64,000 nt of DNA, taken from Candidatus Zapsychrus exili. Lineage in GTDB: Bacteria; Omnitrophota; Gorgyraeia; Zapsychrales; Zapsychraceae. A program made the position numbers and the translations under genes. The stretch is from positions 7,233-71,232 of the forward strand of contig JAVCCJ010000121.1 of assembly GCA_030765585.1 (NCBI GenBank). Direction: 5' to 3'. This document shows, piece by piece, positions 24,307-64,000 of the stretch; the first letter of the stretch is position 1; the number at the start of each line of letters is the position of its first letter. A model generated the notes under the pieces. The model had not been told where the DNA came from and did not search any database. It saw only the letters and a list, made by a program, of their open reading frames with translations.

Positions 24307-24385
24307 TGCGAAAATTATTTTACGAGAAGGTTGCAGAATTAATAATGTGGCAGGGATTGCTTTTAATACACAAGGGAAATGAAAA

Positions 24386-24730
24386 ATGTTGAAATCATTA
24401 AAAAAACATAAGAAGCCAAAAGGACAATCTTTTTTAGAATATGTTCTGCTGATTGTTTTTATTATTGCTGCTTTATTGGTTTTTCAGAAATATATTTCTC
24501 GAGCAATATGGGGAAGATATAAGTCAGTAGGAGATGCGCTTGGCAGTGGTTTGATATACGATCCAGAGAAAACGTTAGAATGTGGGTATGATCATCTGTA
24601 TGGATCTGGTTGGTACAATGCTGCTTGTTACGACGAGAATGATTGTGCACAGTATTGTGCAGCTAAGAAGCAGGCACCGTGCGTTAGTTGCATAGGGGCT
24701 TGTTTCGCTGCAAAATGTAGTGAAAATTAA
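24386..24730 (+). CDS. Flp-like prepilin with a Cys-rich C-terminal knot
   Basis: KPKGQSFLEYVLLIVFIIAALLVF. C-terminus has 9 Cys (CAQYCAAKKQAPCVSCIGACFAAKC). Confidence 0.65.
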   Translation: MLKSLKKHKKPKGQSFLEYVLLIVFIIAALLVFQKYISRAIWGRYKSVGDALGSGLIYDPEKTLECGYDHLYGSGWYNAACYDENDCAQYCAAKKQAPCVSCIGACFAAKCSEN

Positions 24731-24990
24731 ATGTTTGATGTTGGAAAATTGATATGAATATGGTGATTCCGCATGAGTCATTATTTTGATAAAAATTAAA
24801 TAAAGATATTAGGTATTTTTTTTGTTGTGATAAAATAAATTAGTAGACAGTTCGTGGGAACACAAATTGTAGGCCAAAGGCCGTCTGCGAATTTATCCCA
24901 AGCGTTAGTCGAGGGATTTTAATTAAGAGATTTTGGTAGTTTTGCTTTGCAAAAAACCGGAATGATAAACTTACGGGAGAAGTTCATTTA

Positions 24991-25848: not shown

Positions 25849-25860
25849 TAAGAGGAAAAT

Positions 25861-51200: not shown

Positions 51201-54200
51201 GCTTCTAGACAAAGCTGGGAAGCCGCAGTTAGAGAATGGAATGATTTACTTGAGCTGGCTAAAACAAAGGGTGGTTCAGCTGAACTTCTTGCGCGTGTTG
51301 AAGAACAAATTGATCTTATGAGGGATCGTCAAACTAATGAGCCTGGTGAATATTTAAATGTAGTTGCTAATGGCAAGGTGTTGAATCAATTTGCTGATGT
51401 TTTAAAAGATGCAAATAAAGAGCAGAACAAAGAAGTTCGTCTAAGAAAATTAGAAGCAGGTCATAAAGGTATATTAATGGCCGCTAAGTATCTTGGTGAA
51501 GGAATTATACCAACACGTGTTACAGCATTCTTCAAAGCAGATAATATTAAGTCAGTTGCATCAAAGACAGATAAAAGTAAAGATATGACTTATGTTGAAT
51601 TTGTTAAAGGACTTACATCCGAAGAAAAGAATAAGTTTAATTTATCTATGTATGGTTTTGTTGTTGAATTAAAAGGTGAATATACTCTTGCTCGTCGTGG
51701 ACATCAATTAATATCCATGTTGGATGCTTTTGAGAATTTAAGCCAACAAGATATGGATAAACTTGGAGCGACAGTTGGAAGCCATACTCCATTTACAATC
51801 GCAGTTCAATTGGTTCAAGCAGATATAGTAGATATAAAAGAAGCTAAACAGTTAGCATCAATGGTTAATTTCTGGTTAGAGAATGCTGGTCAAACAGAGC
51901 ATATAGTTTCTTTAAGTGAAGAACAACAATCTAATTTCTTAAGCAAACTTAAAAAATTGACATTGCTAATATCTGATAAAACTTACACATTGCTTGCTTC
52001 TATTGGAGAAGAAATTGGAATAATTGATAATGTTGATATGCTTACTCAGATAAAGTCAAGATCTGATGCAATTACGCAGGCATTAGAAGGGGTAAAAGAT
52101 TTAGAAGCGCAAAAAGCAAAAGCAGGATTATTAGGAATTAGATTTAATGGAAAATTAAAAACTGCTGTTAAGACATTAGTTGAGCTGGTTAATCCTACAA
52201 TAGCGAAGATGGCATCTCTTCAAAATGAAATTGCATCTGATAAATTAGATATAGGCCCAATTGAATTTGCCGCTATTCTTCTAAATAGTGACGAGTTAAG
52301 AAACATTGAAGATATTAGTCGTGCAGAGAAGACATTAATATATATAGGAGAGACAATAGGCTATAAGCAATTAGATAAAAAACAAATAAATTTTGTTGCT
52401 TCTTTATTAGAAGAGTCGCTAGTATTACCTGCAGTTCTTTTAGTTGAAAGTGAAAGTATATCTGATGCTCAAAGAGAGCAACATATTAGAGTAGCTGCTA
52501 ATAAGATTGATCAAAACGCAAAGGTTAAGAAGCAAGACCTTCAAATGCTATTCTATCAAATGTTATCTAATCCTCATAAATTTGGTTTAACAGCATCAGC
52601 TGCAAAGAAAAAAGTAAGAAAGTTCAATTGGAAGCTAGATAAAGCAGATACATTTAAGAAGATAAGAACTACTTTAGGAAATGAACTTGCATCTAGATTA
52701 AATCCAAAATTAGGCTTCTTGGATAAGTTTAGTGTTTCTGATAATGAAGAGTTTAAGCTTGTTTCAGGTCGCATAGATTGGACAGATGAGCAAGCCGAGC
52801 AAGAATATAATAAATTAGCTGATAAAGAAAAAGAAATACAAGAAAAGACAGAAGAGCTTGTTCAGAAATTAAAAGAAAAACAAGAAGAGACGAAAGGCAA
52901 TGTTCAAGAATCAGTCAAAGAGGTTAAGAAAGCAAGCTTCTTAAACAGATTTAAGCCAACAATTGTTTTTGAAGGCAACAATATGGCAGAAAAGGTGCTT
53001 AAGGCAGGAATTAAAATAGGTTCTGTTACTTTAGGTTGGATGTTAGTGCCTTCGGTGTTGATTGCATCTCTTGTGTTTGGCACATCAGGTCTTGGGATTA
53101 TTGGAATGGTATTGGTTAGTGCCACTATTCATGAAATAGGTCATATTGTTGCAGCTAGAATATTAGGAGGAAGCCAAACTTATCAAGGAATGGGCGTATA
53201 TGGTCCAATAGCACAGGCTACGCTTAATACGAGAGGACTTTCTAAAAATGCTATAAGAATTATTGCAGCTATTGGTCCTATAACAAATATATTGGTTGGT
53301 ACTGTGGCCTTAGCTTTTGGAGTTGATCCATTTACTGCATATCAAGGAATAGAATTCTGGGGCGTTCCTGTTAATTTAGTTACTATAAACCTTGTTTTCT
53401 TAGCTGCGGTAAATCTTCTACCAATACCTGCGTTTGATGGTCTTACAGTTATAACAGGTAAAAACACTAAGACATCTATGGCTTCAGGGTCTGGAAAAGC
53501 TTTCTATTCAAGTATTCCACTATATGAATTTGTGTTATATGTTGCTTCTGTTCTGTCATTGCGAGGAGTAAAGCGACGCGGCAATCTAGAAGAAGAGATT
53601 GCTTTGCAAAAACCGCTCGCAATGACCGATAATGAGAAACATACTCAACAGTCAGCTATATTTGAGTCACAAGACAAGATTGAGGCAATTAATTTGAACA
53701 TTGAGCTTGAAAAGGCTGTAATGCCTGAAATTCCAGCTATGCCAGATAGAAGTATGCCGTTTGATCCATTAGGTATACCAGTAGCTCCGATGATTCCTCT
53801 TGGAGCACCAGCTTTAATGCTGTTAGGGTCTGTTTCAGGCAGTGGTCCAGGTGGAAAAGCACCTGTTAGTATGGTAGAACAACAAAGAGAATTTGGTCAA
53901 AATGAAGCAGATATTAAAGTAGCACAAGCTCAGACAGGTAGCGAGGTAGGGTTCTTATTAGCGTTTGCTCTCGATCTTAAGAGTCGAATGAATTTTAGTA
54001 GTACCGGTCTGAGTCCAAATGCGATAAGCGCTGCCATCCTTTTCCGCAAAGGATCAGGCAGAGCAAATGTAGTAGCGCGGATAATAGTAAATGTAGTACA
54101 TGTTGTAGCAAATGCAGTAAACGTAGTAAGTAGCAATGGTTCTAAGCCGTTGATATCTAGTGACTTCGGTCATAAAGGTAAAAATAACGGAGAGCCTGGT

Positions 54201-57200
54201 TCACGTAGTGTGTCAAAAAGCCGAGCAATTGAAGTTAAGGCTGGTAGTAAAGCAGTAGTAGCAAAGCTTGTAAGAAACACTTTGGTCAGCATGATAGAGT
54301 ACTTCAAACAAGTTGCAGTAAGGGTTAAGTTGGCAATGAAGGTTCAGGATGATCGCACTGAAACAAGGTTACGTGAAAGCAGAACCACAACAGTAGCAAA
54401 AGCAGTAAACGTAACAAATGAAGCAGAAGTAAATGCAGTAAAAGCAATTGTCATAGAAGAAGCACAAGTAGTATCAGTAGCACAAGTAGCAAGTGCATCT
54501 AATGTTAAGGCTACCGTTGCGGAAGGATTGGAATCCGTATCTAGATCTGCATTATTAAGATCTATGATTAGCTCATCTGCCACAATGGCAGGAATTGTTC
54601 TATTCACAATTAGAGATGAAGTTACTCAAGGCGTTGGTGAACTTTACGCCCAAGTTGTATTTAGGGGTGTGAAAAATGTGTCATCTGAAACTAGTCTTGA
54701 ATATAATGACGCTCAAGGTGCGTCTAATATCAAGATAAGGATAGTAAGCCTTGCTAAGAACATATATAGAAGTCTTAGAGTGCGCGAAGAATCAGGAGAC
54801 GCGGAACCAGGGGCTTCACCAGTTTATAAGTTTGTCCCAACAATTAACACCCAAGGAAACCAAGCCCTGGGTGTGCCTGTATTCCTATCAGCGAATATCA
54901 TAACTATAGGATCATTAAATTCTATCCACTTCTTATTAGGGGCAGCTGCTATAGCTGTTATGCTTGCAATGTTAGCATATGCAATCTATAGAGGTGCGCC
55001 AAATACTATTCATGTAAATTCAATTAAATCAAACACAGATAACAGCCTTATAAATAAAGCACGTGCATATATACGCGCGCGAGTTACTTATAAGGCTGTT
55101 TTATTTGGTAGTTTAAACCATAACGAGTCACAAGCCACGGACTCCAAACAAGGAGGTACATTATGGTCTGCATCAATACAATCAATTCAAGAAGTTTTAG
55201 CAAAAATACAGAAGGCTTACAAATCACACATTTTGTCGAATATCCAAACTCAAGCTGCTTTATCGCAACCGCAAATAACAAAGACACGAATAGAACAAAA
55301 GTCTATCTTGTTGGACAAGATGAACGTATTTATGAACGCTGTGGACTTAAAAGCACTTGGAATGAGCTTCAAAGCGAAAACAAGCGATTTCTTACAAAGC
55401 TTGTTAAAGAAGCTTTCAGCAACGAAGATGTACCATGTTATACAGCTAATAGTTCAAGCATACTTAACTAAGAAAGAAGTAATAAAGAATAGTAATGAAG
55501 TGGAAGTCGTTAGTTCCGTGGCTGGAGGCTTCTCGGCTCCACTTCTTACTAAGCAATTTGTTGAACAAATTGCTAATAATGGGGAAGAAAAATATTTAGT
55601 ACAAGCTAGTAATGGAGTGGAAGTCGTTAGTTCCGTGGCTGGAGACTTTTTGACTACACTCCTTGCTGGCATAAACAGATTTAAAGTAGCATTTGCTACA
55701 GTAGCCATATTACTTTTAAATACAGCAGTTAAAGCGCAAAGTGCTATAGCTGATACAGCTGCCGTTGTTGTAGATTCCGTGGCTGGAGGTCTTAACACAA
55801 CGGCAGCTGTTACTGATTTAAGCAGCCCAACATCTGAATTTTTTGCTCAAATAGGCAATATTACATCAGAGAGTGTATTGATAATGATCGCAGCGGCATT
55901 AATCGCAAGTGTAGTTACATGGTTTGTTATATATGTTGCATCAAAGAAATTAGCAGTAAATATAAGTAGAAGCGGTGCTTTAACGTTAGGTTTTGCTGTG
56001 GCATTTTCAGGATTAAAATTGTTTACAATAGCAGCTCCTATAATTAAGGAAGTGTTTGCCACTACAACATCTTTAGGGATGTTAGAACATTTTGCAACAA
56101 TGGCACCAGTTGTGCTTATACCTGTTTTTGCATTAATGCTTGGAATTTCGCTTGTTGCTTGGAACATTCAAAGAATTTATAAGAGCAAGACAACAGCTAT
56201 AGCTTCGCCATACAATTTTAATACTCTTTCTAAGGCAGAAAAACAAGTTTATAAGAAGGAATTTAAGAAACAATATAAACCGCTTAGAATGAGTTTTAAA
56301 GAATTTGGTCGTTTTGTTTCAGCAAGAAGAGAAATTGTTATTTCTTTAACAGTTATTGGAGCAATTGTAGGTGTTTTAACAAGCACGTCTACTCTATTAA
56401 CAATGGTTTCAGCAGGTGTTCAAGGAGCTTTAGTAGGATTTGTTTCAGTGTATCTGTTATCAGTGCTTTGGAATTTCTTCTTTGGATATGTTTGGAAGAA
56501 CACACAATTTGTTGAGTTTGTTGAAGATAATAGAGGAAGATTTAGCTCAGATGAAACAATCATACAAGAAGTAAAGAATTTAGAAGAGAAGCTAAGTAAT
56601 ACAGGCGTTTTAGAAAATAGCATATATGTAATAAAAGATCTGTTGATTTCGCTGACACTAAGATTCCCAGTTACTGGAGGAATCATACAGTTTGTGATTG
56701 GTCGTGGTTTCTTAGCTTTAGCTGGAAGCTATGTAGCCGGACCAATCACTGCTTTAATCAGCCCTTCAATAACAACTACATCTATATTAGGTTTTTGGCC
56801 AGCTGTAGTAAGTTTCTTAAAAGGCATATACCTTGATACAACAATAGGCGGATTTATAAGATTAGCTCTTATGGTTATTTTCCTTAACCTTAAAAAGATA
56901 CCTGCTTATTACAATATGACGTTTAAATTGTTCACAGGTGAGGCAATTAATACATTTAATCTTAAGAGCCATTTAAGAGAACTTCATAAGAAGCTACCTT
57001 TACATATATTAGCAGCGTTTGTGTCAGTAGCTTCTATTGTTTTAGCCCCTGCTTTTGGTATTATTTATTTAGCTAATATATCAGCTGAAGCTAATGCACG
57101 GGATGTAAATAAATATGCAAAGGTTATTGGCGATATGGGTAAAGATTTTTGGGTTGGAATGTGGAACATGTGGTTAATCTCAATGGAAATTGGTCTTATC

Positions 57201-60032
57201 ACTGATGCTGGTGCTGCACTTGATGGAGAAGATTCAGTTCTTCGTGATATTGGTGGTGCTCAAGTTCATAAGTTAGTTGATGCATTTGAAGGTGAAAATG
57301 GCGCAATAGCAGTTGGTAATTATTTATTACCTCAATATACCGCAGATGGCGTAAATATTCCTCAAGCTATTCACAACTGGGTTGGCGAGACAATTGGAGT
57401 TGAGACAATTTCTTTAGATTTTTATAATATGATAATTGCAGCGAATTCAGCAACAGAGTATAAAGATTATAAATCAACTAGAAAAGCCTTCGATGCTTAT
57501 ATTAACAAAGGACAAGATTCAATATCAGCTGATCTTAGATTTGGAAAACAAACAGCAGTTATAGTAAAAGATGAAAATAATAATTTTGTTAAGATATCAG
57601 TTGATGGCGTTCAAACACTAGGCAATTATTCAGCAAGCGTTAATATAGAAGAATTAGCAAATCAAAATGTAATCTTTATTGTGTCTGAAGAAGATGTTAA
57701 AGCCGGCACATTTGAAGATAAGTTAGATGTAATATTTACAAAGCTAGCTGAAAACAGAGGCGTTGATCAGATAGCAATAAATGCTTTTAACAAAATTACT
57801 CTTGTAGATTTAGAAAGATATCCACCAGCAGGTATTAAATTAAGAAACTATGCAGAACAACAACAAGCAGCTCAAAGAGCAATGCAAGATACTAAAGAAG
57901 CTACAGATGGTGGATACAATGGATACACAGTTGCACAAGCAAGAGAGCAAATAAAGAAATATGAAGCATTAGGAATTACAATTGAAACTGTTAATCTTAA
58001 AAATGAAGTTAGTATAAAGGCTGCAATTGATAAAGCATTAGCTTTCTTAACAACACAAGGAAGAATAGATTATACTCGCGGACCACCAACAGTTAACCTA
58101 GTCAATTCTTCTGATATAACTTTTGCAGCATTTTATGAAGTAGATGACAACACCCTATATATAGAGAAGACAGTACTTAGCGATTTAGCATATGATTTAA
58201 CTTCAGTATTTGTTCATGAGCTTAATGGTGACACTCACGAAGAGAATATAATAGCTGAGAAAGCTTATAAATTAGTACAACAACAAGAAATAGAAAAAGC
58301 AACCGATGAAAGAGCAAAGGTAATTAATAGTGCAATTGAAAGAGCAATAAAGACAGGCGATTTTGATAAAGCTGAAGATATATACAGAGACGATCTTATT
58401 ATTAGATACATAAACGATAAAGATATTTTAACTGATAAAGAAAAAGAAGATATAAGGGCTATTTTAGCTCGTGAGCAACAAAAAAGAGCAAACAAAGTAA
58501 GATCAGAAAGCGGAATACAAGTTAGTAACAATATAGAAGTTGATTCTTACGGAAATGTAGCATCGTTTATTTCGCCATTACCTACAGGCGCATTACAACT
58601 TACAAGCAACGGAATATTTGGCGCAAGCAGAGCAAGAGAAGATGGGAGTCGTTATCTTCACGAAGGTGCAGATTTTAGAGCTGTTGTGGGAACAAAGACA
58701 TTCTCTATATTAGATAATGCTGAAGTTACTCATGTGGCTAATTTTAATACAGGCCGCGCTGGTAAATATGTAACAATTTCAAGCCAAATTGGTGAACATA
58801 AAGTACAAGTATCTTATATGCATTTAAGTTCTGTTGAAGTTGAGTTAGGTCAAGCTTTATTATTAGGCGATATTATTGGTTTAACTGGAAAAACAGGAAA
58901 TGCTAATAATACTGACGAACCTCATCTACATTTAGCGATTAAAATTGATGGTAAGCTTGTTGATCCTGTTAAATTATTTAATGGAGATGTTACATTTGCA
59001 TCGGATACAAGAAACGTAGCACCTATCTTTGGATTACAAATAAGTAATGCAGCATTCGATACTTACAAAGCTCATGATGCTGATGGCTTTTTATCTAAAT
59101 ATTTTAGTTCACGAGCAGATTTTGAGAAATTCGTTTTAGCTATTATTAGATGGGAAAGCAGTTTTGATGCTGATGCGACTAGTAGCGTTGGAGCAAGAGG
59201 TCTAATGCAAATTATGCCTGGTACTTGGGCTGAAGAAGTAGCAGAGCTAGGATATAATTGGACGGCTGCTGATATTACAAATCCATTTAAGAATGTACGC
59301 ATTGGTTCACGTTATCTTGTTGAGCAATTAAGAGAATTTGGTTCTATAGAACTTGCGCTAGCAGCTTATAATCGCGGACCTGGAAAAGTAGAAGATGCGA
59401 TAGCGGCTGGTTTCGCAGACGGCATACCTACAAGCAATGGAACAACGCATGATTATATAGAAAGAATTAAGAAAGTTTATAATGGTGGAATTTTATTAAC
59501 TAATTTCATTGCTAGTCCAGTTGATGCATTAACTAAATGGCTTGCGATAGAAGAGTATAGAAACAATCCAAGATCTTGGATAGAAAAAGTAGTAAGCGAA
59601 GAAGAGAATGGCTCAAACGTTATATTCCCAGTTGTTGATGTAATTATAACTGATAGAGTAGGTGAAAAAGAGAAACAAGCTCATTTAGTTGGATCACATA
59701 ATCTTGATGTGATTACAGATGAACAAGTTTATAACAAAGTTAAAACAATACTTGGGCAAAAAGTTCTTATGGATAAACAAGGTTCTCAAGCCGGAGTTGT
59801 TCTTGTTATAAGTAAGCGAGCATTGTTTAGTGGTGAAAGTAATGTAAGGGCTATAGTAAAAGATTTATTCTCAGAGCTTATAGGAGAAATGAAGATGCAA
59901 CTATATAAAATAGTCATTTGTTTATTTTCTCTAAATCTCCTGTTTACTTATATAGAGAAAATACTTCTGAAGAAAAATATAATTTATCAGAACTTCTTGG
60001 ATTTATTGTTCCTGATGAAGACGGTGATATAG
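30255..60032 (+). CDS. Giant multi-domain membrane protein (9,925 aa as called; probably the N-terminal ~88% of a protein of more than 11,200 aa). Contains C39-like peptidase, OmpA-like, two SecA-type DEAD ATPase modules, M50 protease, M23 peptidase, SLT transglycosylase and several TM clusters
   Basis: Single uninterrupted frame of 29.8 kb with coherent codon usage. The domain motifs are listed individually in the findings. Confidence 0.85.
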   Translation: MKSAAEQNREPEDDRKADSSIGNMSENTAFTHQHSYVPTNRTFLNSEDCSADAQNISNTQPQEEPIPHKSRFKSWIKTVALIIILVFVPEQISWAFSYNPLVLWKDKATVASQYLGDGNTIAAENQMTEEQIVSLRVSESVSHFLKQLQNKNAQQIQLQLPNPHKSKLVKDNQYNILINTDLAFNESNIAEIATWLREPAIHPLNCGVYALNDILANYDVKLSLEEISVMSLLVDLINDIVRPGEPKLKTSLYAINKITEAYGINLKAAKLAPADIFDLEPPFIANFDDEHFVTVTKVDDTSVYYNDIGRASSSSRLDFLDQVTGFVLAPELEAQDDVKFEYVPDAMQAFIWGSKWHGNLDNLPGLYSWGDVAIGAAFQVVGLFTGGLASSVLSLGAGSFLGSLTTAIALSECYDAETGAADQGCLDTMFVLNIVGTSAISAGSGALNADSFDLGAFAGDFAKGAVVGLGQGLIMLYVGKLLNDLLEDWDAPDALKQAIIGAVSSVVATTAMGLVVDGLDAALKEMGVGEGAKVDLSLKSVYAGDTQVKVEPEWAVWKATAMGNVLSGLNKVVTFIGKYTGISWALNQLNKGWNKLVKGMIGSNSGAAKTLTATGKAFNGIKKGVNYALNGKFSPVTYVIKALAVIPRTVRNLMSEGKKVWGVKHLVFALEQHNFLRQMTVLAVRYILSEGKILGIDDGNKENNGDDGEDRGIAFDSFLSQAIGMGVGMFYDHVSIGLDNRDNLTKRTENEIAQKKAEAEGLDKNDPEYGDFIQNNIVSMTGMSLEDIFAKRAEFGLSENSDFAQYQGKRTSAFIAILGKSVASVLLAKHYDKKECARVDCNETERLGEDPNRDRIGLLKFRATQFLIGGLIEGGIAILTESNRRPDGAELTQTDKKVELDKKIINKLANKDADKLENALNTSMMLVNEKGELIDNLNATEKTSNEMLLAAKKKYEQAYSEGGGANGEGIEKVLAAAGLSKKESKEYLKQRAKELDKTNDVSKLFLLFNGNFVAKTIQSMYSANGNSPYGIVGYDDGVAVYDQRGFVRADEDASPTEKLISSIAARSSYINEMVGMYGGMTLTKRLMVREQNEKMEADMRRTNEVSSAAPISEEELARQIGAAQMRANVKTLDVIHNSNNYFLDAINQSLATALFSPQDSPILHALDSLAFDFVDASIEQQAQAAWEDESKKPDTNKLAFLQNKRQELRDEVAMNSDDKFGYSPSDSVDVSIEQQAQDAWAKEGKKPDTNKLEFLQNKRKELHEEAAMNSPWLGLGMDYRYLASEQIGEGIDSNKITYKMSENLVFNSGKGILLGTSLEKKGDLLEYGLEKLNVYYQDEVGKGDYIGEGSDRDFSGTIVRDISGLSEIDRRELGFDPEKMKIATENDGDKEIVAVGLAQKLRQTDRKEDVSALNEEKKGKIITKIDGTTRLVFGYEAEHLAEQGKKYDMTVDVGKFTVNEETGDRIHLSAQRQAAPDAQLSDSWVVTRQDFNAATPKDITATTMFFASQGEVIDEQGNVLEQYVASISSEDCVTGCTDPKKTWYVNRSLFAKEGDKKISDMDDLGFDTNLKTFANKDVKTEIAALKKDYKRIDDSTEKDENRLAVVNTIIDHAIEDKESNQIAKELYGFAKMVEEHKVASSLEIGAYTNNKEGSNQEGEELYLGIARYNTDDKGNVKDTSTVLISEPQIYDKNGAVATTNFIYQTEQTSAFNVGDSAVYGKVVDGKETLVSAEEIDTYKDKKGIKGDVKSIAVVRQVAKGDIDLSSAVEMAKGFDKDGVDKFGDTPENFNGKDYMSFVAASTEDGQTAVLEASKSKLVQGYSEIKSSVKVHYDHDSYKLEAKAKKDLDSAAATLNDNDQKNIIINGRTDSSGTNQYNVKLSLNRALAAKDYLMEQGISEDRIIIRALGEGEADQSIAESIRSDKEIGRKDRNSSFEIVEKSPLGDSKITFRVDKEGFVKRASTNFYTAGLDNEGSSIVYDLAPKASLLADALILLAADVADALGPEENKIQEIVTSNATSAKAAQLDGALVAIVPDIRAYELGKNDLLHIVDGEIIAPNEIRFDDYAPDPTSTPKRDSKGNVVAGSFIKDTVATKQGDGTYAYSSADGKVGKAASLTVDQLVVTKFGVVGVDEAAIVSDKPLILGNNSQWLASSSDATLEVAFGSKTTQALDSKGNIVGPVEEVNYNGGYRIDESKAIVLRSKVGEGALLGSIYINNEGAPKVLDKEAFEEESLEDNKKYVSATTQSETVGSLSVAGISTESKWTATPVVDGKINKYAADEDGVLESALVGNRIVSLHGNAKENNMTFKDMKDKANVGFISKSGRMILTPNNNNISGGWSKDANDQLSFNVGIKDTKKMNGSEEGKGTALGLQQENVLVYNKGIGNILYQGSEQTSVDPVTGLVGANRFVTMNLTGDMGVNQGTVLASKVDLAQGNIEGQVRNHKDLDAPSIFSAKLNTFDIKDSEIILKVSQELGDVSQLPVAADFAYSKEGKGEAPVQTPANLAALKGVENNPNVLMLEVSKEAGQDLTKVLGTPTSSVLNFAFSTDGLKFNPKAEGSVYSNFDRVSVLSGVEAPTVILKREATPTESNSTPAIQFIADANNNVKMQWKGIWNIQRDSAYTNHSTKWMSADGKSEAPLVLNTTIIGEEITASAGWNDTAVWNWAAGAPKMRGTITDKDGNSVSSLGIQRVDGAGAGWTIQARGSKDGSTLVAPNHVNVEENGYVDPDAKKDVDKTVSNKFFKLPQAQSYDVYKDGSREDGLVEVRLNQGFPEGVETPADFEIKSGQSINLLVQDHDGLSSVSTTENMVGTDVRKMIYHAKAPEQEKAAVEKEVSEQETDLNKFSMPIENFVAKQDNTRLAKVNIPVIIDNFITPEPNVDKITVQEWRVERAPETMVVENPYSVLTLDGSRAIERDVWGSKVGTIPIKETVSFEPGDYQSFGDVNKTVLITKTAATSYNIDYSNSDKITATKSSEGLNFVDYSGEMSFIKGRTSKEIEQIKENDITEWFPNATEGKEKVSVQMDSDAITSEAMQIKRYDPKTGAHVTDRYLAGMTAIKGNDGIIRSQFTTEASLYNADTKEIGNAGNLLYDAAASFLLDSVETDKGKKAVFKFVPEGQDPTVFTATSKGGIETVNTIYTDPATIKEANEANSSGALLPEAIAQTLDPNNTGSIQRVYQYQGKKLVNEYFAVTRAKEDSSKVEKFYVDGKYANPNNANELKSLIASELNLDLKETKTSTLQDFSYSKTIEDDAEVVYVSPQGKVYLRMVTGRTIIETPNSYSSSSTSTSEQHDVFAYDLVTGDVEEVDVEKTFVDVVTDKDGAKRYALKYLVPESRTRYSIGLPISYKPAGVQGIEFKDEDGKEIWADINYIKSGQLNGVGEEKQFVAVSIQDAGWSKNKRNRIIDLSTGREITREGFIETPEGGKWDLNRYKGKIVEMVKAKGFWGDVGDVAWNGLRGEGKETYVKNMLMDWGMSYASAGALDVSNPSVAGVVTTALMFTGVGSGLGLIGKGAKAGSTAARVYSISRAALKTGLIFGGIDTAAYVGIGALTGQDLNFSDGLAAFAGGVKMGATMTLGITGLGAVSGRIANSINAVNGVAGTGKGFKFVSKTYKGFGKMAEWKQAAILNGSSGAAVNVTRGMVANYYENGGELDYSLRSFAIDATAGAIISVALGGVGSKVMKGSFNTKQLLGNNMIHYGLVGLGGETVSTGIFSDKEMTWTRAAGSFAMGAIGGLVFRSTWIPEMMGVKPAEIIGETAKVTEGVTEGATSLFRNIKNPLKLTKAAQGVESGATVLNFSKLRTIGTLTGLGVGAGAGMAAMDARVHAKQDARKAGFKEGTKAFDSFVSKETSNNFRSWKTAKYMGAGALAANVMFFGRRAIQMKGRAKLLGTHSNKRITLPLIADEPHLIASLSLLGAADFAMIMPAWGALDSVIYTGLTGGNLEEGFYHSFQQKDVDGNDLGVFSNLAVHSIGGAKLGARLGPVLGIAQMPLSALGKKSALAPKSISKFSANKSSGLSISKILSSPTAHSMPVTVAQLATVEVLAEKVLENTYFKTAAENKADTLYNSHLEETKIMTGAYPTTTKAQFREEYAKNKIKEDAGQIAFASLLFKPSSMPGAEPETGGKGNKGSTAEAKIETPPNKPSDNALSADAQIKLSTKQTNIDQAPVAKPEKSMLSRMTTAVDYIGSKFKGHNNNILRQKIGTQSLEQNVIITSSSKQYVKAAKEARRRGTESKDKEYRDLDEIDQVFNMSMDSLRESIEADGRTKFKVKPKQLALVYSVIEHAIKGEKLLAIEPVSGGKTVLTAAIVDSLAKKGKTVVVIVPSGKLVDQYMNSALFENGRFTTPQTRNNGKDAVPEALKKGMVYFMTDAQAKDFVLHKNKTGENFFKDAQGFYDEAHNLFTMSDKIIGGGSERAAKIVAENSSQAKRLQRQYDTDTELARITVDLVREVGGEVEYLVENKNSDRMSHQFKEQATYRNGKNVWAVKDANGKLSIVKKGTAGAEILRPKDIVLERFNKSVKEKKLIRFKSDHSKALLEDFAGLAKSAFQEARIRTKNKQGNLESAPLDAYTGEARWGEIFSDPTGRNTKARALVALERVLALEREGNVNLESYIKSAINSTEHKARGADFLDMFDNVTLLTGTAGEVKGMAKMKNINMVQFRPEYTLKDIGPENVTFETSGKSKIDMIVDIIRDEINLAKKAGDNFVLITTNSREAGVLGARKARQTQNLKDKGYKVEYVSDAKLAERIKEINNSNAKEKIVIVTQVIEGISVEAKGSGVVMETAVLSAADTTQALARMNTFAEAKDSSRTKAKAKVKLHIDDHLILTAEKQKILEAQGKLDQARKTNSSDAIKNAEANLDLIWREMMHSLTEFKTNQGLATISTTVVEGVKSKVAKESVQQQLRSTTHGILSDIRQEAHKDIALDYMNKTGKTSAQISLSDNKGFEIFSSSKEGDEISVDNINNVGLVATEEIELIHGAKLKAGQTLDYETGFVYEAPQNEFDIKDFSQIKSEYLPVGVISITREDVNNPKANYNPVVNTVVNGKKAAAIELSDLGKNTLLDRQIVYAENSDGKIDQVAYRVKPIISNVTVGAALSAININDDSYEIDNDGFAIVPIETFNKAFSKENALDNSVFDGIGFKFAQDITIHEGFKEKRSDAITGRTRKSKNKVAKDALKLSIQKTVETPEIAIALPDGQGGTKTQRIKMDDLRELQTRMASSKSPDSDVNLYFADYDSEESKAKTNKALNNLVRFSNPTTQDDKDWVASLNTEEVVHYDTAAKSLKTRGISPVEFAMRFQHQMGGKNFGGHTGSGGQDALGNKRDQQNVYVNESATHIFDYYQDIERDKGFEAASDTEKMMETVLHEQIGFANRDFSHYQNVEVRRVWLKATEAVKQMKENNVDTVELQLVDGSGYEIYEAIKENGKTIGAQPIKLVAQNSDVKLRHLNTTLAKGETLDYKASSKTASLDTGSIKYKSVDNQEDKIVSKLKVGQDIVNITDPNLNGHTKLAQRAVADVEDAASILNKIDLSLNGTRKEFALDRHIKTIEQLRNTNNVFISKNAGAMSTDDGRMIVGRLDNNNNRLVLNSEANGEMADIYLRGQKIVENVPLRVAAIISEVDRKHDAGFEVYKAKNDAPAQSKASDNALTADTFHPANITTRKQIQGMMRDGVDQALMTLRAGGYDSKAKIMNFTKANLPDSFNKRVKDFAMRARVRATTARERAQKDTFGSVIHASSGRVSTLEWGLHEAGYKTDEAMVAKIADIVAGDPRRVEGDIAVYDFSDVKGTTRLDNYELHVDTTRNFDDKSMLSIFADAPQGQTIAWLGENIAVVNTDISVGGESELARSWSKIEKKLGNQNFDEQLAMVMQFDIIDLNKLVALAVEDANTEEAILARAKGLSVDAPIYVAVMRDEWVFFAVVDGKLVGEPQKAEDISNGLVLMSKESIPGHVVAKFSEKYVVAQSVLNPETSIPTALGKGQWAPIEGQLASMSATAMLSVVPSVAKHEKIVVVQSDAGQAEKTAIEFALAIPEKQIYVVNHTKTNQWFVKVTVADGEANISNVFITADKLENGVVVVDAAMLSEAAFDILRANGAIISKAAMPDSFGGEDNVSAKAVKAVFNTDYRQKTIDQRLKTKEAAEEPVIVVPVAPRNDAIDMPAMVPAATIPVTVPMLMSSGVGDNSPNVELADAAMTSGPGNNSPNYKDIIAKSEELIADSEKTIAISQKIRAASEEIRANSRAIRKKIATSGSDDAMLAAAKTDDIMQYLPYDRKIENDVLVKMKQDVGRIVDIINETNRKIEPEFSVRDDQVKMAEALIEGKVVVAENAAGKTLAKFIAGLANIVNGRQATILTRDENDSAKWILEAPEEGFGANYSQMLAATMKEYELESSGIVDLDGLMKRYDDALKKRRTIVANKEINEIKGQILRALQSKDMLKIVSINARGHMPNRFLDDDLILQGIKSIKDDGDTILDEADDLLLLETTYIQSQSQSVKKNSNLRKIVSQAKKIFDQVKIGTDEEDAIKVAASIQDFEKLNKANKKAVWYSQGSGLIGAPDLLISDAVYESFKEGTLPTMIEGVIRGKIEEIGTRLAADLNKGELVPVTRTGELQSDMIFSQIPYKVAQTLKINEILKARGDSQLKLNNITVTGDTVRENPISEMLQGKGRVVGATANKAGAEYIIQAKTGSTEGIVTIGEESNVFKQAALPTKNYRHVDITGQAGGLVDQLASMAEKSLADNKGTLIFTSDHVQLRKIAEDLKKRFPNTEVGVIDEDTKPEQIEKYRNEIGTHKGNSTPRIVVSLPRVAKQVSFKGNLDVIVSDGASWPKADLTHAVNRNNRSEKLELRLGRSYVLVDKEALNKKFEFVRNLVPEIKGLSKADDVNKLVDEIEKAGAGDTLALSKKHRLVAEFLQAQQRSSSHKHTILTLFRNNRQTEPMQDLYDSRVGSDKKIVQEILFKERAGLYGNTMQKLHDNPFTGEEWVREASRQSWEAAVREWNDLLELAKTKGGSAELLARVEEQIDLMRDRQTNEPGEYLNVVANGKVLNQFADVLKDANKEQNKEVRLRKLEAGHKGILMAAKYLGEGIIPTRVTAFFKADNIKSVASKTDKSKDMTYVEFVKGLTSEEKNKFNLSMYGFVVELKGEYTLARRGHQLISMLDAFENLSQQDMDKLGATVGSHTPFTIAVQLVQADIVDIKEAKQLASMVNFWLENAGQTEHIVSLSEEQQSNFLSKLKKLTLLISDKTYTLLASIGEEIGIIDNVDMLTQIKSRSDAITQALEGVKDLEAQKAKAGLLGIRFNGKLKTAVKTLVELVNPTIAKMASLQNEIASDKLDIGPIEFAAILLNSDELRNIEDISRAEKTLIYIGETIGYKQLDKKQINFVASLLEESLVLPAVLLVESESISDAQREQHIRVAANKIDQNAKVKKQDLQMLFYQMLSNPHKFGLTASAAKKKVRKFNWKLDKADTFKKIRTTLGNELASRLNPKLGFLDKFSVSDNEEFKLVSGRIDWTDEQAEQEYNKLADKEKEIQEKTEELVQKLKEKQEETKGNVQESVKEVKKASFLNRFKPTIVFEGNNMAEKVLKAGIKIGSVTLGWMLVPSVLIASLVFGTSGLGIIGMVLVSATIHEIGHIVAARILGGSQTYQGMGVYGPIAQATLNTRGLSKNAIRIIAAIGPITNILVGTVALAFGVDPFTAYQGIEFWGVPVNLVTINLVFLAAVNLLPIPAFDGLTVITGKNTKTSMASGSGKAFYSSIPLYEFVLYVASVLSLRGVKRRGNLEEEIALQKPLAMTDNEKHTQQSAIFESQDKIEAINLNIELEKAVMPEIPAMPDRSMPFDPLGIPVAPMIPLGAPALMLLGSVSGSGPGGKAPVSMVEQQREFGQNEADIKVAQAQTGSEVGFLLAFALDLKSRMNFSSTGLSPNAISAAILFRKGSGRANVVARIIVNVVHVVANAVNVVSSNGSKPLISSDFGHKGKNNGEPGSRSVSKSRAIEVKAGSKAVVAKLVRNTLVSMIEYFKQVAVRVKLAMKVQDDRTETRLRESRTTTVAKAVNVTNEAEVNAVKAIVIEEAQVVSVAQVASASNVKATVAEGLESVSRSALLRSMISSSATMAGIVLFTIRDEVTQGVGELYAQVVFRGVKNVSSETSLEYNDAQGASNIKIRIVSLAKNIYRSLRVREESGDAEPGASPVYKFVPTINTQGNQALGVPVFLSANIITIGSLNSIHFLLGAAAIAVMLAMLAYAIYRGAPNTIHVNSIKSNTDNSLINKARAYIRARVTYKAVLFGSLNHNESQATDSKQGGTLWSASIQSIQEVLAKIQKAYKSHILSNIQTQAALSQPQITKTRIEQKSILLDKMNVFMNAVDLKALGMSFKAKTSDFLQSLLKKLSATKMYHVIQLIVQAYLTKKEVIKNSNEVEVVSSVAGGFSAPLLTKQFVEQIANNGEEKYLVQASNGVEVVSSVAGDFLTTLLAGINRFKVAFATVAILLLNTAVKAQSAIADTAAVVVDSVAGGLNTTAAVTDLSSPTSEFFAQIGNITSESVLIMIAAALIASVVTWFVIYVASKKLAVNISRSGALTLGFAVAFSGLKLFTIAAPIIKEVFATTTSLGMLEHFATMAPVVLIPVFALMLGISLVAWNIQRIYKSKTTAIASPYNFNTLSKAEKQVYKKEFKKQYKPLRMSFKEFGRFVSARREIVISLTVIGAIVGVLTSTSTLLTMVSAGVQGALVGFVSVYLLSVLWNFFFGYVWKNTQFVEFVEDNRGRFSSDETIIQEVKNLEEKLSNTGVLENSIYVIKDLLISLTLRFPVTGGIIQFVIGRGFLALAGSYVAGPITALISPSITTTSILGFWPAVVSFLKGIYLDTTIGGFIRLALMVIFLNLKKIPAYYNMTFKLFTGEAINTFNLKSHLRELHKKLPLHILAAFVSVASIVLAPAFGIIYLANISAEANARDVNKYAKVIGDMGKDFWVGMWNMWLISMEIGLITDAGAALDGEDSVLRDIGGAQVHKLVDAFEGENGAIAVGNYLLPQYTADGVNIPQAIHNWVGETIGVETISLDFYNMIIAANSATEYKDYKSTRKAFDAYINKGQDSISADLRFGKQTAVIVKDENNNFVKISVDGVQTLGNYSASVNIEELANQNVIFIVSEEDVKAGTFEDKLDVIFTKLAENRGVDQIAINAFNKITLVDLERYPPAGIKLRNYAEQQQAAQRAMQDTKEATDGGYNGYTVAQAREQIKKYEALGITIETVNLKNEVSIKAAIDKALAFLTTQGRIDYTRGPPTVNLVNSSDITFAAFYEVDDNTLYIEKTVLSDLAYDLTSVFVHELNGDTHEENIIAEKAYKLVQQQEIEKATDERAKVINSAIERAIKTGDFDKAEDIYRDDLIIRYINDKDILTDKEKEDIRAILAREQQKRANKVRSESGIQVSNNIEVDSYGNVASFISPLPTGALQLTSNGIFGASRAREDGSRYLHEGADFRAVVGTKTFSILDNAEVTHVANFNTGRAGKYVTISSQIGEHKVQVSYMHLSSVEVELGQALLLGDIIGLTGKTGNANNTDEPHLHLAIKIDGKLVDPVKLFNGDVTFASDTRNVAPIFGLQISNAAFDTYKAHDADGFLSKYFSSRADFEKFVLAIIRWESSFDADATSSVGARGLMQIMPGTWAEEVAELGYNWTAADITNPFKNVRIGSRYLVEQLREFGSIELALAAYNRGPGKVEDAIAAGFADGIPTSNGTTHDYIERIKKVYNGGILLTNFIASPVDALTKWLAIEEYRNNPRSWIEKVVSEEENGSNVIFPVVDVIITDRVGEKEKQAHLVGSHNLDVITDEQVYNKVKTILGQKVLMDKQGSQAGVVLVISKRALFSGESNVRAIVKDLFSELIGEMKMQLYKIVICLFSLNLLFTYIEKILLKKNIIYQNFLDLLFLMKTVI
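30790..31200 (+). other. Peptidase C39-like (papain-fold Cys peptidase) domain of the giant protein
   Basis: PLNCGVYALNDILANYDVKLSLEEISV ... DDEHFVTVTKVDDTSVYYNDIG parallels the C39 pattern (..CGxAxL..vsleEl.. / ..NHFVVLykid..vyiaDP). Confidence 0.5.
33781..34065 (+). repeat. In-frame tandem duplication (2 x ~123 nt, period 162 nt = 54 aa) inside the giant gene
   Basis: SIEQQAQAAWEDESKKPDTNKLAFLQNKRQELRDEVAMNS / SIEQQAQDAWAKEGKKPDTNKLEFLQNKRKELHEEAAMNS, ~85% nt identity. Confidence 0.8.
35740..36070 (+). other. OmpA-like peptidoglycan-binding domain of the giant protein
   Basis: IIINGRTDSSGTNQYNVKLSLNRALAAKDYLMEQGISEDRIIIRALGEGEA matches the OmpA_C pattern (GHTDxxGsxxYNxxLSxxRAxaVxxYL...Gi...ri...GxGE). 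Confidence 0.65.
43080..44700 (+). other. First SecA-type DEAD/SF2 ATPase module of the giant protein
   Basis: KPKQLALVYSVIEHAIKGEKLLAIEPVSGGKTVLTAAIVDSLAKKGKTVVVIVPSGKLVDQY (SecA motor pattern Q-L-iGg..L..Gki-aEM-kTGEGKTL-a-l-ayLnAL-GkgVHvVTvND-La-rD). DEAH-like box FYDEAHNLF. Later TTQALARMNTF. Confidence 0.6.
49150..50830 (+). other. Second SecA-type DEAD ATPase module of the giant protein
   Basis: DDQVKMAEALIEGKVVVAENAAGKTLAKFIAGLANIVNGRQATILTRDENDSAK. DEAD box TILDEADDLLL. Motif-VI-like LTHAVNRNNRSEKLELRLGRSYVLV. Confidence 0.65.
53000..53470 (+). other. Peptidase M50 (site-2 protease-like) intramembrane metalloprotease domain of the giant protein
   Basis: HExxH in a TM helix (VSATIHEIGHIVAARILGG) and NLLPIPAFDGLTV (S2P pattern NLLPIPxLDGG), flanked by hydrophobic helices. 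Confidence 0.6.
58560..58990 (+). other. Peptidase M23 (LytM-type peptidoglycan endopeptidase) domain of the giant protein
   Basis: YLHEGADFRAVVGT (HxxxD), GKYVTISSQIGEHKVQVSYMHL, TGNANNTDEPHLHLAIKIDGKLVDP (HxH). Confidence 0.7.
59060..59470 (+). other. SLT-type lytic transglycosylase domain of the giant protein
   Basis: AIIRWESSFDADATSSVGARGLMQIMPGTWAE (catalytic E-S plus GLMQ), ..NVRIGSRYL.., LALAAYNRGPGKV (AYNxG). Confidence 0.7.
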
Positions 60033-63000
60033 AAGCACCAGCTGATGCAACTTACAATCCTATTTATAACAGAATTAGTGGAAAGATAGTAGAAAAGCTA
60101 GATACTGAAGATGGAATTATTATAACTGTAAAAGATGGAGAGAAAGAGGCTTCTTATATAGTTGTTGCAACTCATTTAAATGAAGACGACATAGTAATGG
60201 AGGGAGCTCTTTTAGGTGTATCTTTTGATAAACAAGCTTCTGATGAAACTTTAGAAGAACAAATAGAGATGCAAATAGCAGATATAAGAGAAGGCATAGA
60301 AGATAAAGAAGAAAGAGTTGATGAGATTTTAGATGATGTTGCAAAATTCTTATCTACAAAAGCTATGTTTGTAGATCAAGGATCATTTGAGTATGAAACA
60401 TTGGTTGAGAAATTAAAAAACAATGATTTAAGTACAAGATTAGCTGTTGTATCAGCTTTGGTTAATGCATATGGCGTTGATCCTAAAAATACAATTAATG
60501 GTCTTTTTGCAAGAAATAGCGAGTTAAGAGGCGAAGATCAAACAACTAATTTATTAGCATATGTAGGTCTTAATTATGTTCCAGGAAATGCAGTATTTAC
60601 AAAGGGTATTAATTTAGGCGGAAATAATAGTTTAGATATTGGTCTTGCAATTAATAGTCGTTATTCACAATTCTTACAAATTTTAAATATGACATTAGGA
60701 TATGAAGACCTTATTGCGAAACAAGGCGTAGGTGCTGTTTTAGGATGGATATTCTATGTAGAGGCTGCAGCAGAAGTATTTAATGGATTTCAAGGAATGA
60801 TAACAGGTTTTTCAGATAGAGGTGGAATTATAAGACCAATAAAAAGAGGAGTATGGACTGCTGTTTATGATGCGGCAGAAGAAAAAGGCGATCCTAGGAT
60901 AGTTGAAAAAGACGGAGAAACCATACTTAAGAAAGAGACTAAATCTTATTCAGTACATGTATCAGCTGCCAGCGCTATTAAAGATCTTATGAGAGAAACT
61001 TTAGGACATGTTATTCCTTCATTATTTGGTGATCCAGAGAAAGTTGCTATTTGGGAAGCAAGATACCCAATTTATCTTCCAGGAAATGTTCAACTAAGAT
61101 TCCTTAAAGAAGGTATTGCAAATACTGATGAGAATATTATTTATTCAATACAAAGAGGACGTGAAGGGGAGAAAGCAGAAGGACTTAAGGGAGATGCATC
61201 TGAGTATATCTTTGGCTATAAGATTGATTTAAACAAAACAACAGTGACTGAAGAGAATCCTTTAGGAACTAAAGAATTAATGTTTGCTTCTCGTATGTTT
61301 GCCAAAGATAAAAATGGTGAGCTTTTACTTAAAGAGTGGTTAGAAAAACCATATAACGCTATGTATAATAAAGAACCTGGCGAGATGTATATAGTTCCTT
61401 CAAGACATACATTAGAGAATGTTGGCGATCTAAGAGACGTTGCAAGGGGTTATGATTTTGATGCTGATGGAGAAAAAAGAACAATACTAGCTGCAGCAAT
61501 TCATCCTACAACTGGTGTTGTTATGAGAAAGTATTATAAATATGATGGTATACCTGCATCAAATCCTGTTCCTGCATTTGAGCGTGATGGTATGACAATA
61601 TATGTTGCTGAAAATGAATATACTTATGAAGACATAAAAGTTAAGTCTAATCAAGATCCAAGTTTATCAATAGGAACAGTAGATGATAAGCCAATTCATC
61701 CATATATTATATATAGCAAGCCTTTAGCTGATATAGGTTATTGGTTTGGTGCAGAGTCAACAGATAATACAACAGCACATATTATGAAATTTAGCAAAGT
61801 AGCAACAAATGAGTCAGTGAATATGTATGAATATGCAGGTACTCAAGAATGGACTGAAGATGTAAAAGATATTAAAACAACTGAATTGGTTTGGAAAAAA
61901 TATGACGACAAAAAAGAAACTCCAATTAGAACAGCTGTTAAAATGTTTAACCCTAACAAGGGTGTTGTTGATACAGATAAAATAACAGGTGAGGATAAAT
62001 ATTCAGGAGATTATACAGAAATTACATTACCTGAAGGTTTAATTATAGTTGATGAGAATACAGGCAATATTACAGGCGCAGATGAAATAGGAATTATCGT
62101 TGAAAAACCAGCTGAGGTACCTATTGCGGTTGCTCATCTTATTGATCGCTCAGTATATTTATACACTCAAGAAGAAGTTGATGCGCTTTATTTACATGAG
62201 GCAGGTAAAGATTTAAAAGTTAATTTTGTTTGGGATTTTGCTGGAGCAGATTCTAGAAAAATTAATGTAATAAGAAATAATTCTAATCATGATGATCAAA
62301 CTGTAATGATAGTTGGTGGTCTAGGTCTTGATACAAAGGTAGACGAAAATGATTCAAAAGATCAACCTGAGGTAGGAATTTTAGAATATAGCAGAGCTAG
62401 CAGCCTTGAATATCAAAAAATATTTACAAAAATGGTAAACAATAAAGCGTTAGGTATGATTACTCGCGAAGATGGAACTATTGAGCTTATAACAAAAGAT
62501 AACTTCCCTGTTACAGAGCAGATAATAGAAAGTGTACCTGAGAAAGAATCTGATGATTTAGCAAGATATGCAAGAAAAGACCTTATGAATGTTGGCGAGG
62601 TTGAAGGTTTAATATCTATAGCTGGCATAGATGATATAGATGGAGAAATCAAAGCGCTTATAAATAAGACATTAGGATTAGAAGCTGATATATCAAGTAA
62701 AGATGCAGCTTATATTAAGGCAAAAGCAGAATATGAAAAAGATTTAGATCAGCTTGTATCAATTGAAGCTGTTTTAGGCCAAGAAAGTTTCTTTGCAAGA
62801 ACACATGCAATAAACGCTATGTTAAGAGGTTTTGAAGAAGAACAAAAGAAATTAGATGATGCTATTACAATAGGCGAAATTATAGCAAAGATGTCTGTAG
62901 GTGAAAATTCTGAGACTGGCGAACTTCAAATTAATTATAAAGATTTTATGACAGATTTAAGAGAAGAAGCAGTAGATAGAAATATGGATATTAATGATTT

Positions 63001-64000
63001 ATTAGAAAAGAAGATTATAAATTATTTTAATTCACAATTCTTTAAGAGTAGCGATGTTGCAGCTCTTGAAGAAGAAATTAGAAAAGCACAAGCTGCTCTT
63101 AATAAACTATATCATTTTAATGAAAATGATCCATTTGTAACATTTGATGAAGCTTATTTACATGTATATGGTCCTTGTGGAGTTGTACCAGGAACACTTG
63201 TTCAATCAGCAGATTTATTACTTCCAGCAGCGCAAATATCATTAGATTCGCTTCAAATGAATTTAACTACTGCAGAAGCTCTATTAAGCGATATAGAAGT
63301 AAATGGCTATGCTGACAATAGTAATACTTACAACAATATAGTCTTTACTCAAGAGAAGATATCAGAAGGCTTTACATATGAAAAAACAGATGACGGACAA
63401 TCAGATATATTATGCTCAACTATGGGTCGTATACAAAGATTAGAGCATGCTGTTATAAAGTGGCAAGCTGAATTAGTTAAAGCACAAAGTAATGTAGAGT
63501 GGAAAGCAATGGTAGAAGAGAATTTAGCACAAACTCAAAGTTGGTTAGCTTTAGAGAAAGACACATTTATTTTATTGCTTAAGATGAGTGTTATTTATTA
63601 TGATCCTACAGGTTTATTCTACACCGAAGCAAAAGAGATGCTTAAAGATGTTATTGCTCTTGCAGAAAGAAGAGTAGCATTAACATCAGAAGATATTAAT
63701 TTATTAGAGAGAGCAAAAAATACTAATATTCCAAATTATCAAGGACTATTCCTTATACCTCTAGAGTGGGACGAAGCAGAACTAGGCCCTCGCGATTCTG
63801 ATGTTTATACAATACCAGAAGTAGAAGCATATTGGATGTCTCGTCTTGTTGCAATTGATATGGAAATAAGAGCAATGCAAGAAATTATAACGAATAATGA
63901 AATAAGTGATGAAGCAAAGGCGCTGTTCGTACAGCTTATAGCTAATTTAGAACAAGAAAGAGACGACTACTATACAAATCATGCTAAGCCTGAGTTAGAA
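59909..64000 (+). CDS. Open frame (-1 relative to the giant ORF) running from 59909 to the window edge with no stop and no credible start codon; most likely the 3' continuation of the giant gene
   Basis: Frame 2 translation (NSHLFIF...ELLGFIVPDEDGDIEAPADATYNP... to ...YYTNHAKPELE) is protein-like for 4.1 kb. Inserting one A into the A4 run at 59907-59910 joins it in frame to the giant ORF (…MQLYKNSHLF…). Confidence 0.6.

Follow-up and report, generated by a model that had tools for sequence, protein, structure and literature searches.

The loci of giant genes in Omnitrophota have been described as preceded by genes resembling those of type II secretion systems and type IV pili (T2SS/T4P; gspD/E/F-type), by RcpC and by a Rotamase_2 peptidyl-prolyl isomerase (PPIase), and the giant proteins as rich in membrane segments, one of which is close to an N-terminal C39 domain (West-Roberts et al. 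2023, bioRxiv 10.1101/2023.11.21.568195). The same source counts SLT among the "less common" domains of these proteins and proposes wall degradation as a function. Here we examine a giant gene of Candidatus Zapsychrus exili (Omnitrophota) in a stretch of 64,000 nucleotides (nt), the window, to whose first letter all positions refer. As assembled, the gene is an open reading frame (ORF) of 9925 codons in frame 0 (30255..60032; all genes and domains given below are on the + strand), and near its 3′ end it encodes a Peptidase_M23 domain followed by an SLT domain, a pair that we call the cassette. Both predicted wall hydrolase domains are intact, which is confirmed, far beyond chance, at the level of sequence; from their families they would be expected to open a hole in murein together, one cutting peptide cross-links and the other glycan strands.

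The window agrees with the published layout. Neighboring proteins are identical to NCBI entries of Candidatus Zapsychrus exili on a 111,550-bp contig, and NCBI taxonomy assigns this organism to Candidatus Omnitrophota. Two T2SSE, a Secretin, two T2SSF, RcpC and Rotamase_2 lie within 2711-26754, the giant gene is directly downstream of this Tad/T2SS-like secretion locus, and a Peptidase_C39 domain (30867..31238, amino acids [aa] 205-328; Pfam) lies downstream of an N-terminal membrane segment at aa 74-98. The ATPase domain was called by Pfam as a DEAD/ResIII helicase-type domain (43062..43472, aa 4270-4406) and not as SecA_DEAD. Published giants have 30,000 aa or more; the visible protein, at 11,249 aa or longer, is far below this, but its gene runs off the window. 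A relative, L091, does contain SecA_DEAD, SecA_PP_bind and P-loop_SecA. The content described for the "Archaeovorin" subtype (glycosyltransferase, methyltransferase, glycosyl hydrolase and NUDIX) was not found by Pfam in the visible 11,249 aa, and the part beyond the window may differ.

Proteins with M23 and SLT in tandem are known from several other settings. PrgK, of plasmid pCF10 and a Gram-positive type IV secretion system, is likewise membrane-anchored with LytM (M23) and then SLT in one chain, and its task is to open the producer's wall for a machine that spans the envelope (PMC11323569). Its LytM is degenerate and it has a third domain, CHAP, whereas the M23 site in the window is complete and no CHAP was found; the host protein of the cassette is moreover more than 10 times larger than PrgK and comes from a diderm. 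CwlP (YomI) of the B. subtilis prophage SP-beta is likewise long and combines a muramidase/SLT-type domain with an M23 DD-endopeptidase (Sudiarta et al. 2010, cited in PMC9662197), and the order M23 then SLT recurs in three tape-measure-like proteins (P0150, P0210 and P0249). CwlP and the tape-measure proteins are read as virion or tail proteins acting from outside, whereas the giant gene is chromosomal, with housekeeping neighbors and no phage genes. Finally, two proteins of flagellar operons, P0001 and P0006, have M23 and then SLT at 31-32% identity; these are free proteins of 370-430 aa, whereas the pair in the window forms one module within a giant protein, and the window contains no flagellar genes.

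Both the giant-gene loci of Omnitrophota and the tandem of M23 and SLT (in PrgK, CwlP and tape-measure-like proteins) were thus already known. What is new is an intact M23, with an M15 peptidase added in relatives, which with SLT completes the set, and the placement of this cassette at a conserved position, at the base of an arm, in a subfamily of giant proteins. M23 has zero mentions in West-Roberts et al. (10.1101/2023.11.21.568195) and in a preprint on complete genomes (10.64898/2026.06.07.730766), and the passages of the former that we read do not mention an M15 peptidase. The find is solid but incremental and would not surprise a specialist. Nevertheless, the giant proteins of Omnitrophota are mostly unannotated and the proposal of wall degradation rests on few recognizable domains, to which a complete murein-specific pair with conserved active sites can now be added at a fixed position, the base of a predicted membrane-free arm.

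The two hydrolase domains

The giant ORF was scanned against Pfam in five pieces. Peptidase_M23 (PF01551) occupies 58656..58967 (aa 9468-9571) and scores 51.2 bits against a cut-off of 28.7 (E 1.5e-13), covering profile positions 2-96 of 96; SLT (PF01464, glycoside hydrolase family 23 [GH23] lytic transglycosylase) occupies 59124..59405 (aa 9624-9717) and scores 84.2 bits against a cut-off of 21.3 (E 6.4e-24). The initial annotation, made from the letters alone, had placed a tandem of these two domains at the C-terminal end of the giant ORF and quoted HEGAD, HLHL, E-S, GLMQ and AYNRG as their canonical catalytic motifs. The presence of both domains is borne out by these scores, the HMM search that it had suggested being significant for each, and every quoted motif is there. 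Its wording "C-terminal end" holds only for the ORF as assembled, as shown in the next section.

The M23 part has the HxxxD, His and HxH pattern of its family: H9469 and D9473 in HEGAD (nt 58659-58673), H9523 in YMHLS, and H9557 and H9559 in PHLHL. In a phmmer search of Protein Data Bank (PDB) sequences it aligned to the 6jmx series of M23 peptidase structures, in which the alanines of His-to-Ala chains (6jn7, YYALS; 6jn0, 6jn1 and 6jmz, PALHF) coincide with histidines of the query. All five metal-binding or catalytic residues are present, and they are conserved across the family. The best sequence matches of this part are Pgp3, ShyA and MepM, which are DD-endopeptidases of the D-alanyl-meso-diaminopimelate (D-Ala-mDAP) type. 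In an AlphaFold model of aa 9190-9885 the M23 part is of low confidence (predicted local distance difference test [pLDDT] 30-50) because the usable alignment was shallow, and the assignment of M23 therefore relies on the sequence. Its family nonetheless predicts a zinc endopeptidase that would cut peptide cross-links, of the D-Ala-mDAP type in its best matches.

For SLT the residues are E9634-S9635 in RWESS (nt 59154-59159), GLMQI at 9649 and AYNRG at 9704. In the alignment with P. aeruginosa Slt, E9634 falls on the catalytic Glu, and 6fc4, which Foldseek labels as the inactive mutant E503Q, has Gln at that place. This is the only confident part of the AlphaFold model (pLDDT >90, model residues ∼400-560), and the top Foldseek matches of the modeled part were Slt, LtgA, Slt70 and MltE, with a goose-lysozyme-like fold. 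The family alignment shows no variation at Glu-Ser, at the Gln of GLMQ or at the Tyr and Gly of AYNxG, and the catalytic residues of both domains are the same in the four family members and the two small tandem proteins compared. The top NCBIfam match was the flagellar-assembly lytic transglycosylase BB0259 (BB0259_flg_lyt, NF047373), at 83.8 bits against a full-length cut-off of 234, since only the catalytic domain is covered. By family, then, the domain is predicted to be a family-1 lytic transglycosylase cutting the glycan bond between N-acetylmuramic acid (MurNAc) and N-acetylglucosamine (GlcNAc), with Glu9634 as acid/base. The claim that the canonical residues are intact is thus upheld by alignment to solved enzymes and their inactive mutants and, for SLT, by a confident model as well.

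These same residues speak against a scheme in which one or both domains do not hydrolyze murein and instead regulate or bind in the manner of EnvC, NlpD or the degenerate LytM of PrgK. Degenerate LytM factors lack the metal-binding and catalytic residues of M23; here the five M23 residues, the SLT Glu-Ser, GLMQ and AYNxG are all present and conserved in the family. PrgK does give this scheme a precedent, in that its LytM is inactive and its "SLT" is a muramidase regulated by neighboring domains (PMC11323569). We regard it as extremely improbable for the cassette.

The frame break and the extent of the protein

The ORF ends at a frame-0 stop at 60030, and the list of ORFs contains none 3′ of 60032. 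The -1 frame (positions = 2 mod 3), however, is open from 59909 to 64000, a stretch of 1364 codons without a stop that runs off the window, while the other two frames have 131 and 175 stops there. Codon log-odds trained on the giant ORF gave a best switch from frame 0 to frame 2 at 59909-59921, beside an A4 run (59907-59910), with coding potential continuing without a gap; the most likely position of the break is thus 59907..59921. The frame-0 tail beyond it (59922..60032; …ICLFSLNLLFTYIEKILLKKNIIYQNFLDLLFLMKTVI*) consists of rare codons over its last ∼38 codons, contains a hydrophobic stretch of 19 residues, and is probably not the real C-terminus. We joined the 9885 frame-0 codons conceptually to the 1364 downstream codons, and this fusion reads …EMKMQLYKNSHLFIFSK… at the junction.

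A HMMER search for homologs of aa 9001-9925, run exhaustively over 1.84 billion representative proteins, returned P0221 (3442 aa, filling a whole 10.3-kb contig of an Omnitrophota metagenome-assembled genome) and P0130 (2280 aa), and both were compared with the fusion by BLASTP. P0221 matches at the cluster of membrane segments (fusion 8505-8854 with 967-1337, E 2e-16), at M23-SLT (9396-9720 with 1688-2031, E 3e-20) and at a downstream block (10044-10959 with 2529-3440, E 3.5e-114); P0130 matches at M23-SLT (9452-9745 with 816-1144, E 1e-32) and at the downstream block (10031-10813 with 1434-2246, E 6e-54). The fusion is collinear with both, the multiple alignment is unbroken across the junction, and the collinear part includes the post-SLT region (59412..59906; FPVVDVIITDR … GVVLVISKRAL). 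When genomes were scanned with the downstream block, three loci were recovered, each labeled Candidatus Omnitrophota. One of these, L092, on a 2.0-Mb contig, has a single frame open across 22.7 kb (>7584 aa); Peptidase_M15_2, M23 and SLT occupy its aa 2510-2989, and ∼345 aa separate them from the conserved block. In three Omnitrophota relatives, a single polypeptide without interruption contains both M23-SLT and the homolog of the downstream sequence. Many members of the family have the cassette but not all, because L091 has the conserved block with no detectable M23 or SLT upstream.

The conserved block itself spans ∼930 aa (60344..63130) and follows M23-SLT in the same polypeptide in the relatives. 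It was found only in Omnitrophota loci, had no Pfam, PDB-profile or PADLOC match, and gave an empty result in a word-index homolog search. The residues that shortly precede it (GIIITVKDGEKEASYIVVATHL…MEGALLG) look like the C-terminal half of a LytM or barrel-sandwich motif.

Because codon usage moves to the -1 frame and homologs hold both parts in one polypeptide, the giant protein most likely has at least 11,249 aa and runs on past the end of the window, and the M23-SLT pair is most likely internal, with at least 1,530 residues beyond SLT. The apparent C-terminal warhead vanished once the break had been checked against homologs, and the ends of ORFs in these giant genes should not be trusted at face value. 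The stop at 60030 is most likely the result of a local assembly or sequencing error or of a recent lesion. Local and single-base assembly errors are documented to split giant genes, in Illumina-only assemblies as well (West-Roberts et al. 2023, 10.1101/2023.11.21.568195). Across the gene family we found five frame breaks in three short-read assemblies (window 59909-60032; L091 9722-9812, 12217-12274 and 20958-21009; L088, the locus of P0130, 9794-9914), all of them -1 with 52-124 nt of overlapping open frames, and none in L092 (2-Mb contig) or L090. In L088 the corresponding break coincides with the boundary of an array of tandem 450-nt repeats; L092, whose frame is continuous, has a longer version of this array.

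It is also conceivable that the assembly is correct, so that the protein ends at 60032 with M23-SLT as a C-terminal module and a hydrophobic tail, and the downstream sequence is either a gene starting at TTG 59918 or is reached by frameshifting. The given sequence does have the stop, the 19-residue hydrophobic stretch could serve as an anchor, and a 14-nt inverted repeat (59923-59963) stands just 3′ of the putative shift site. Two further points weigh against a simple error: unlike the break in L088, that in the window is outside any repeat, our search for internal repeats as its source having found none, and the five breaks all share the -1 direction. In addition, the case for an error in the window is argued from the assembled sequence. 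However, the frame-0 tail loses coding signal, with its rare codons, where the -1 frame gains it, and homologs read straight across the region. TTG 59918 is the sole start codon in the -1 frame before 60197, and it lacks the purine-rich, Shine-Dalgarno-like run that precedes most genes of the window; the edge of a repeat array in L088 and the documented gene-splitting errors likewise favor an artifact. The 9925-aa product is also absent from the protein collection in which its neighbors are present with NCBI accessions, a weak point. We therefore think it unlikely that the assembly is correct, and doubtful that the break at the window junction is real.

Programmed -1 frameshifting in particular is disfavored, in that inspection of the frame overlap found no canonical X XXY YYZ slippery heptamer, and we keep it as a reading of low probability. 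That the recurrent -1 breaks are biological, with programmed or tolerated frameshifting yielding a ∼9,900-aa form as well as a read-through form with the distal arm, seems very unlikely. If it were true, the shorter form would end just past M23-SLT with the hydrophobic tail, and the switch between an anchored and an extended form would lie at the wall-cutting module. Exact anchors on both sides of the junction found no independent assembly among metagenome contigs, and a protein-guided scan for the junction returned generic SLT genes only, with neither a close relative nor the window's own sequence among them.

Position and possible role of the cassette

The topology described here comes from a crude hydropathy scan and presupposes that wall hydrolases have their site of action outside the cytoplasm. 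A merged scan gave 22 hydrophobic segments in the giant protein, as an estimate from hydropathy only, and the last cluster of these (54897..57092, aa 8215-8946) ends in a segment at aa 8912-8946. M23 begins at aa 9468, ∼520 aa past this cluster, and no further segment follows to aa 11249, so the pair stands at the predicted base of a long arm without hydrophobic segments. The arrangement recurs in the relatives: the last segment is at aa 2300-2334 and M23 starts at aa 2699 in L092 (next segment at aa 6605), at aa 428-462 and about aa 880 in P0130 (none to its end at aa 2280), and at aa 1535-1553 and aa 1745 in P0221 (none to its end at aa 3442). In all four proteins the cassette is thus 170-560 aa past the last hydrophobic cluster, and 1,300-3,600 aa without hydrophobic segments follow.

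Two further domains accompany the pair. A third wall hydrolase, Peptidase_M15_2 (DUF882 type), is found in L092 (aa 2510-2567) and in P0130, ∼130-190 aa before M23. Its place in the window protein is taken by a conserved domain at 57858..58307 (aa 9202-9351; DGGYNGYT … RGPP … VFVHELNGxTHEEN), just before M23, whose invariants include D, Y, E and HE-x5-H-x2-N-x3-E and which is possibly a metallopeptidase of the zincin type. Many unrelated multidomain proteins (P0129, P0131, P0133, P0137, P0158 and P0212) contain this domain as well, in some cases in two copies; it had no Pfam match and no PDB match by profile search, and a word-index homolog search with aa 9190-9365 was empty.

The initial annotation had suggested two uses for the pair, breaching the sacculus of a prey or host and letting the giant protein pass through its own wall. 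The sequence does not decide between these, although the location close to the membrane, the presence of an OmpA-like domain in the giant protein and the closest relatives with both domains tilt the balance toward the second. We propose that the tethered cassette opens the producer's own sacculus for passage of the arm, a role that we consider about evenly balanced between right and wrong. The membrane anchor would hold the cassette in the producer's periplasm, where it would cleave peptide and glycan bonds alike within a small area of the cell's own sacculus, and the gap would let the arm of >250 kDa, and perhaps the neighboring secretin/pilus machine too, cross the wall. VirB1, EtgA, FlgJ/SltF and PrgK, which serve other envelope-spanning machines, would be analogs.

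Several features favor this role. The cassette adjoins the membrane anchor and not the far end of the arm, and an OmpA-like peptidoglycan-binding domain is present in the same protein (35748..35987, aa 1832-1911; Pfam). The best two-domain relatives in a word-index search, P0001 and P0006, have their genes in flagellar operons, flanked by fliJ and a rod gene, and the top NCBIfam match for SLT was BB0259. Flagellum-associated hydrolases such as FlgJ, SltF and Borrelia BB0259 make a local hole in the cell's own wall, and dedicated wall openers, PrgK among them, are the rule for envelope-spanning machines. Moreover, Omnitrophota retain complete peptidoglycan synthesis (10.64898/2026.06.07.730766), so an arm of >250 kDa would need a gap in the producer's own wall.

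A number of observations weigh against it. The flagellar link consists of two loci at 31-32% identity and is not general, because small tandem M23-SLT proteins are not always linked to a machine: of three further ones, P0141 stands alone and has a PG_binding_1 domain, and two are on contigs too short to show neighbors. Tandem M23-SLT also occurs in the long tape-measure-like proteins noted above, and CwlP has been interpreted as a virion-associated lysin directed at a target wall (Sudiarta et al. 2010, cited in PMC9662197). PrgK shows that LytM and SLT labels can mislead on activity (PMC11323569), and proteolysis by the C39 domain or by the M50-like region described below could release the arm. 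Both the role and the localization are predictions, as is the topology of cassette and arm, which is taken from hydropathy.

The published hypothesis for these proteins is instead degradation of prey walls, and giant proteins, including those with the rare SLT, have been linked to it (West-Roberts et al., 10.1101/2023.11.21.568195). Under this hypothesis (M15)-M23-SLT would be exported on the arm or released proteolytically and, as the cell attaches to a bacterial host or prey, would digest the murein of that target. The upstream secretion/pilus locus would fit as an export route, the C39 domain and the M50-like motifs could provide a means of freeing fragments, the combination of two or three hydrolase types suggests thorough digestion, and the tape-measure-like proteins and CwlP mentioned above would be parallels. 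Yet the cassette adjoins the membrane anchor and not the far end of the arm in all four proteins, its position is not that of a C-terminal warhead, and the two-domain proteins closest to it are encoded in flagellar operons. The sole cultured predator of the Omnitrophota attacks archaea (West-Roberts et al.; 10.64898/2026.06.07.730766). Archaeal walls are not known to contain murein, and such prey would therefore offer the pair no substrate. A weapon against prey walls is accordingly less likely than not, but it is a serious contender. A piece of ∼310 aa should be expressible, and its substrate preference could separate opening of the own wall, which we favor, from attack on a prey wall.

Two other candidates were rejected. 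A polymorphic-toxin warhead with an immunity gene does not fit a cassette that is internal in homologs, with no separate small downstream gene and coding that runs on in the -1 frame, and a phage or plasmid origin does not fit neighbors that are housekeeping and Tad/T2SS-like genes.

Other features of the giant gene and its surroundings

A Pfam scan at E up to 0.1 with offset pieces of 2000 aa and with the downstream 1364 aa gave zero additional domains, and PADLOC gave no match. Within the giant ORF, a hydrophobic cluster at 53010-53453 (aa 7586-7733) contains HEIGH (aa 7626) and NLLPIPAFDG, motifs typical of site-2 (M50) intramembrane metalloproteases, with no Pfam match even at E 0.1. If this region is real, it would give the giant protein a built-in protease able to cut it. 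Further upstream, a 162-nt tandem duplication (33763-34064; 1.9 copies, 85% match) encodes a repeated segment, SIEQQAQ(A/D)AW…KKPDTNKL(A/E)FLQNKR.

The Tad/T2SS-like locus (2711..26754) is interspersed with housekeeping genes and encodes a PilZ-T2SSE ATPase, a Rotamase_2 PPIase, RcpC/CpaB, a secretin-TonB_C fusion, a ParA-T2SSE fusion and two T2SSF proteins. The two fusions are unusual: the product of 9201-11087 joins a secretin to a C-terminal TonB_C, and that of 11115-13274 joins a ParA/CpaE-like ATPase to a CpaF-type T2SSE ATPase. The separate T2SSE ATPase, at 2711-4114, has an N-terminal PilZ domain.

Immediately 5′ of the giant gene, ∼2.2 kb (28050-30250) showed no coding signal in six frames and had no Rfam match. 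This region contains a 73-nt direct repeat (28245/28655, 85%), a 66-nt repeat (28828/29474), three copies of the palindrome AGGGTCTGACCCTC, one of them variant, and a nested long hairpin at 29066-29313; it could consist of elements like miniature inverted-repeat transposable elements (MITE) or repetitive extragenic palindromes (REP), or be a regulatory region. Over the whole window (1-64000), nearly all genes are on the + strand and the guanine-cytosine (GC) skew is positive throughout, which is the pattern of one strand per replichore reported for complete Omnitrophota genomes.

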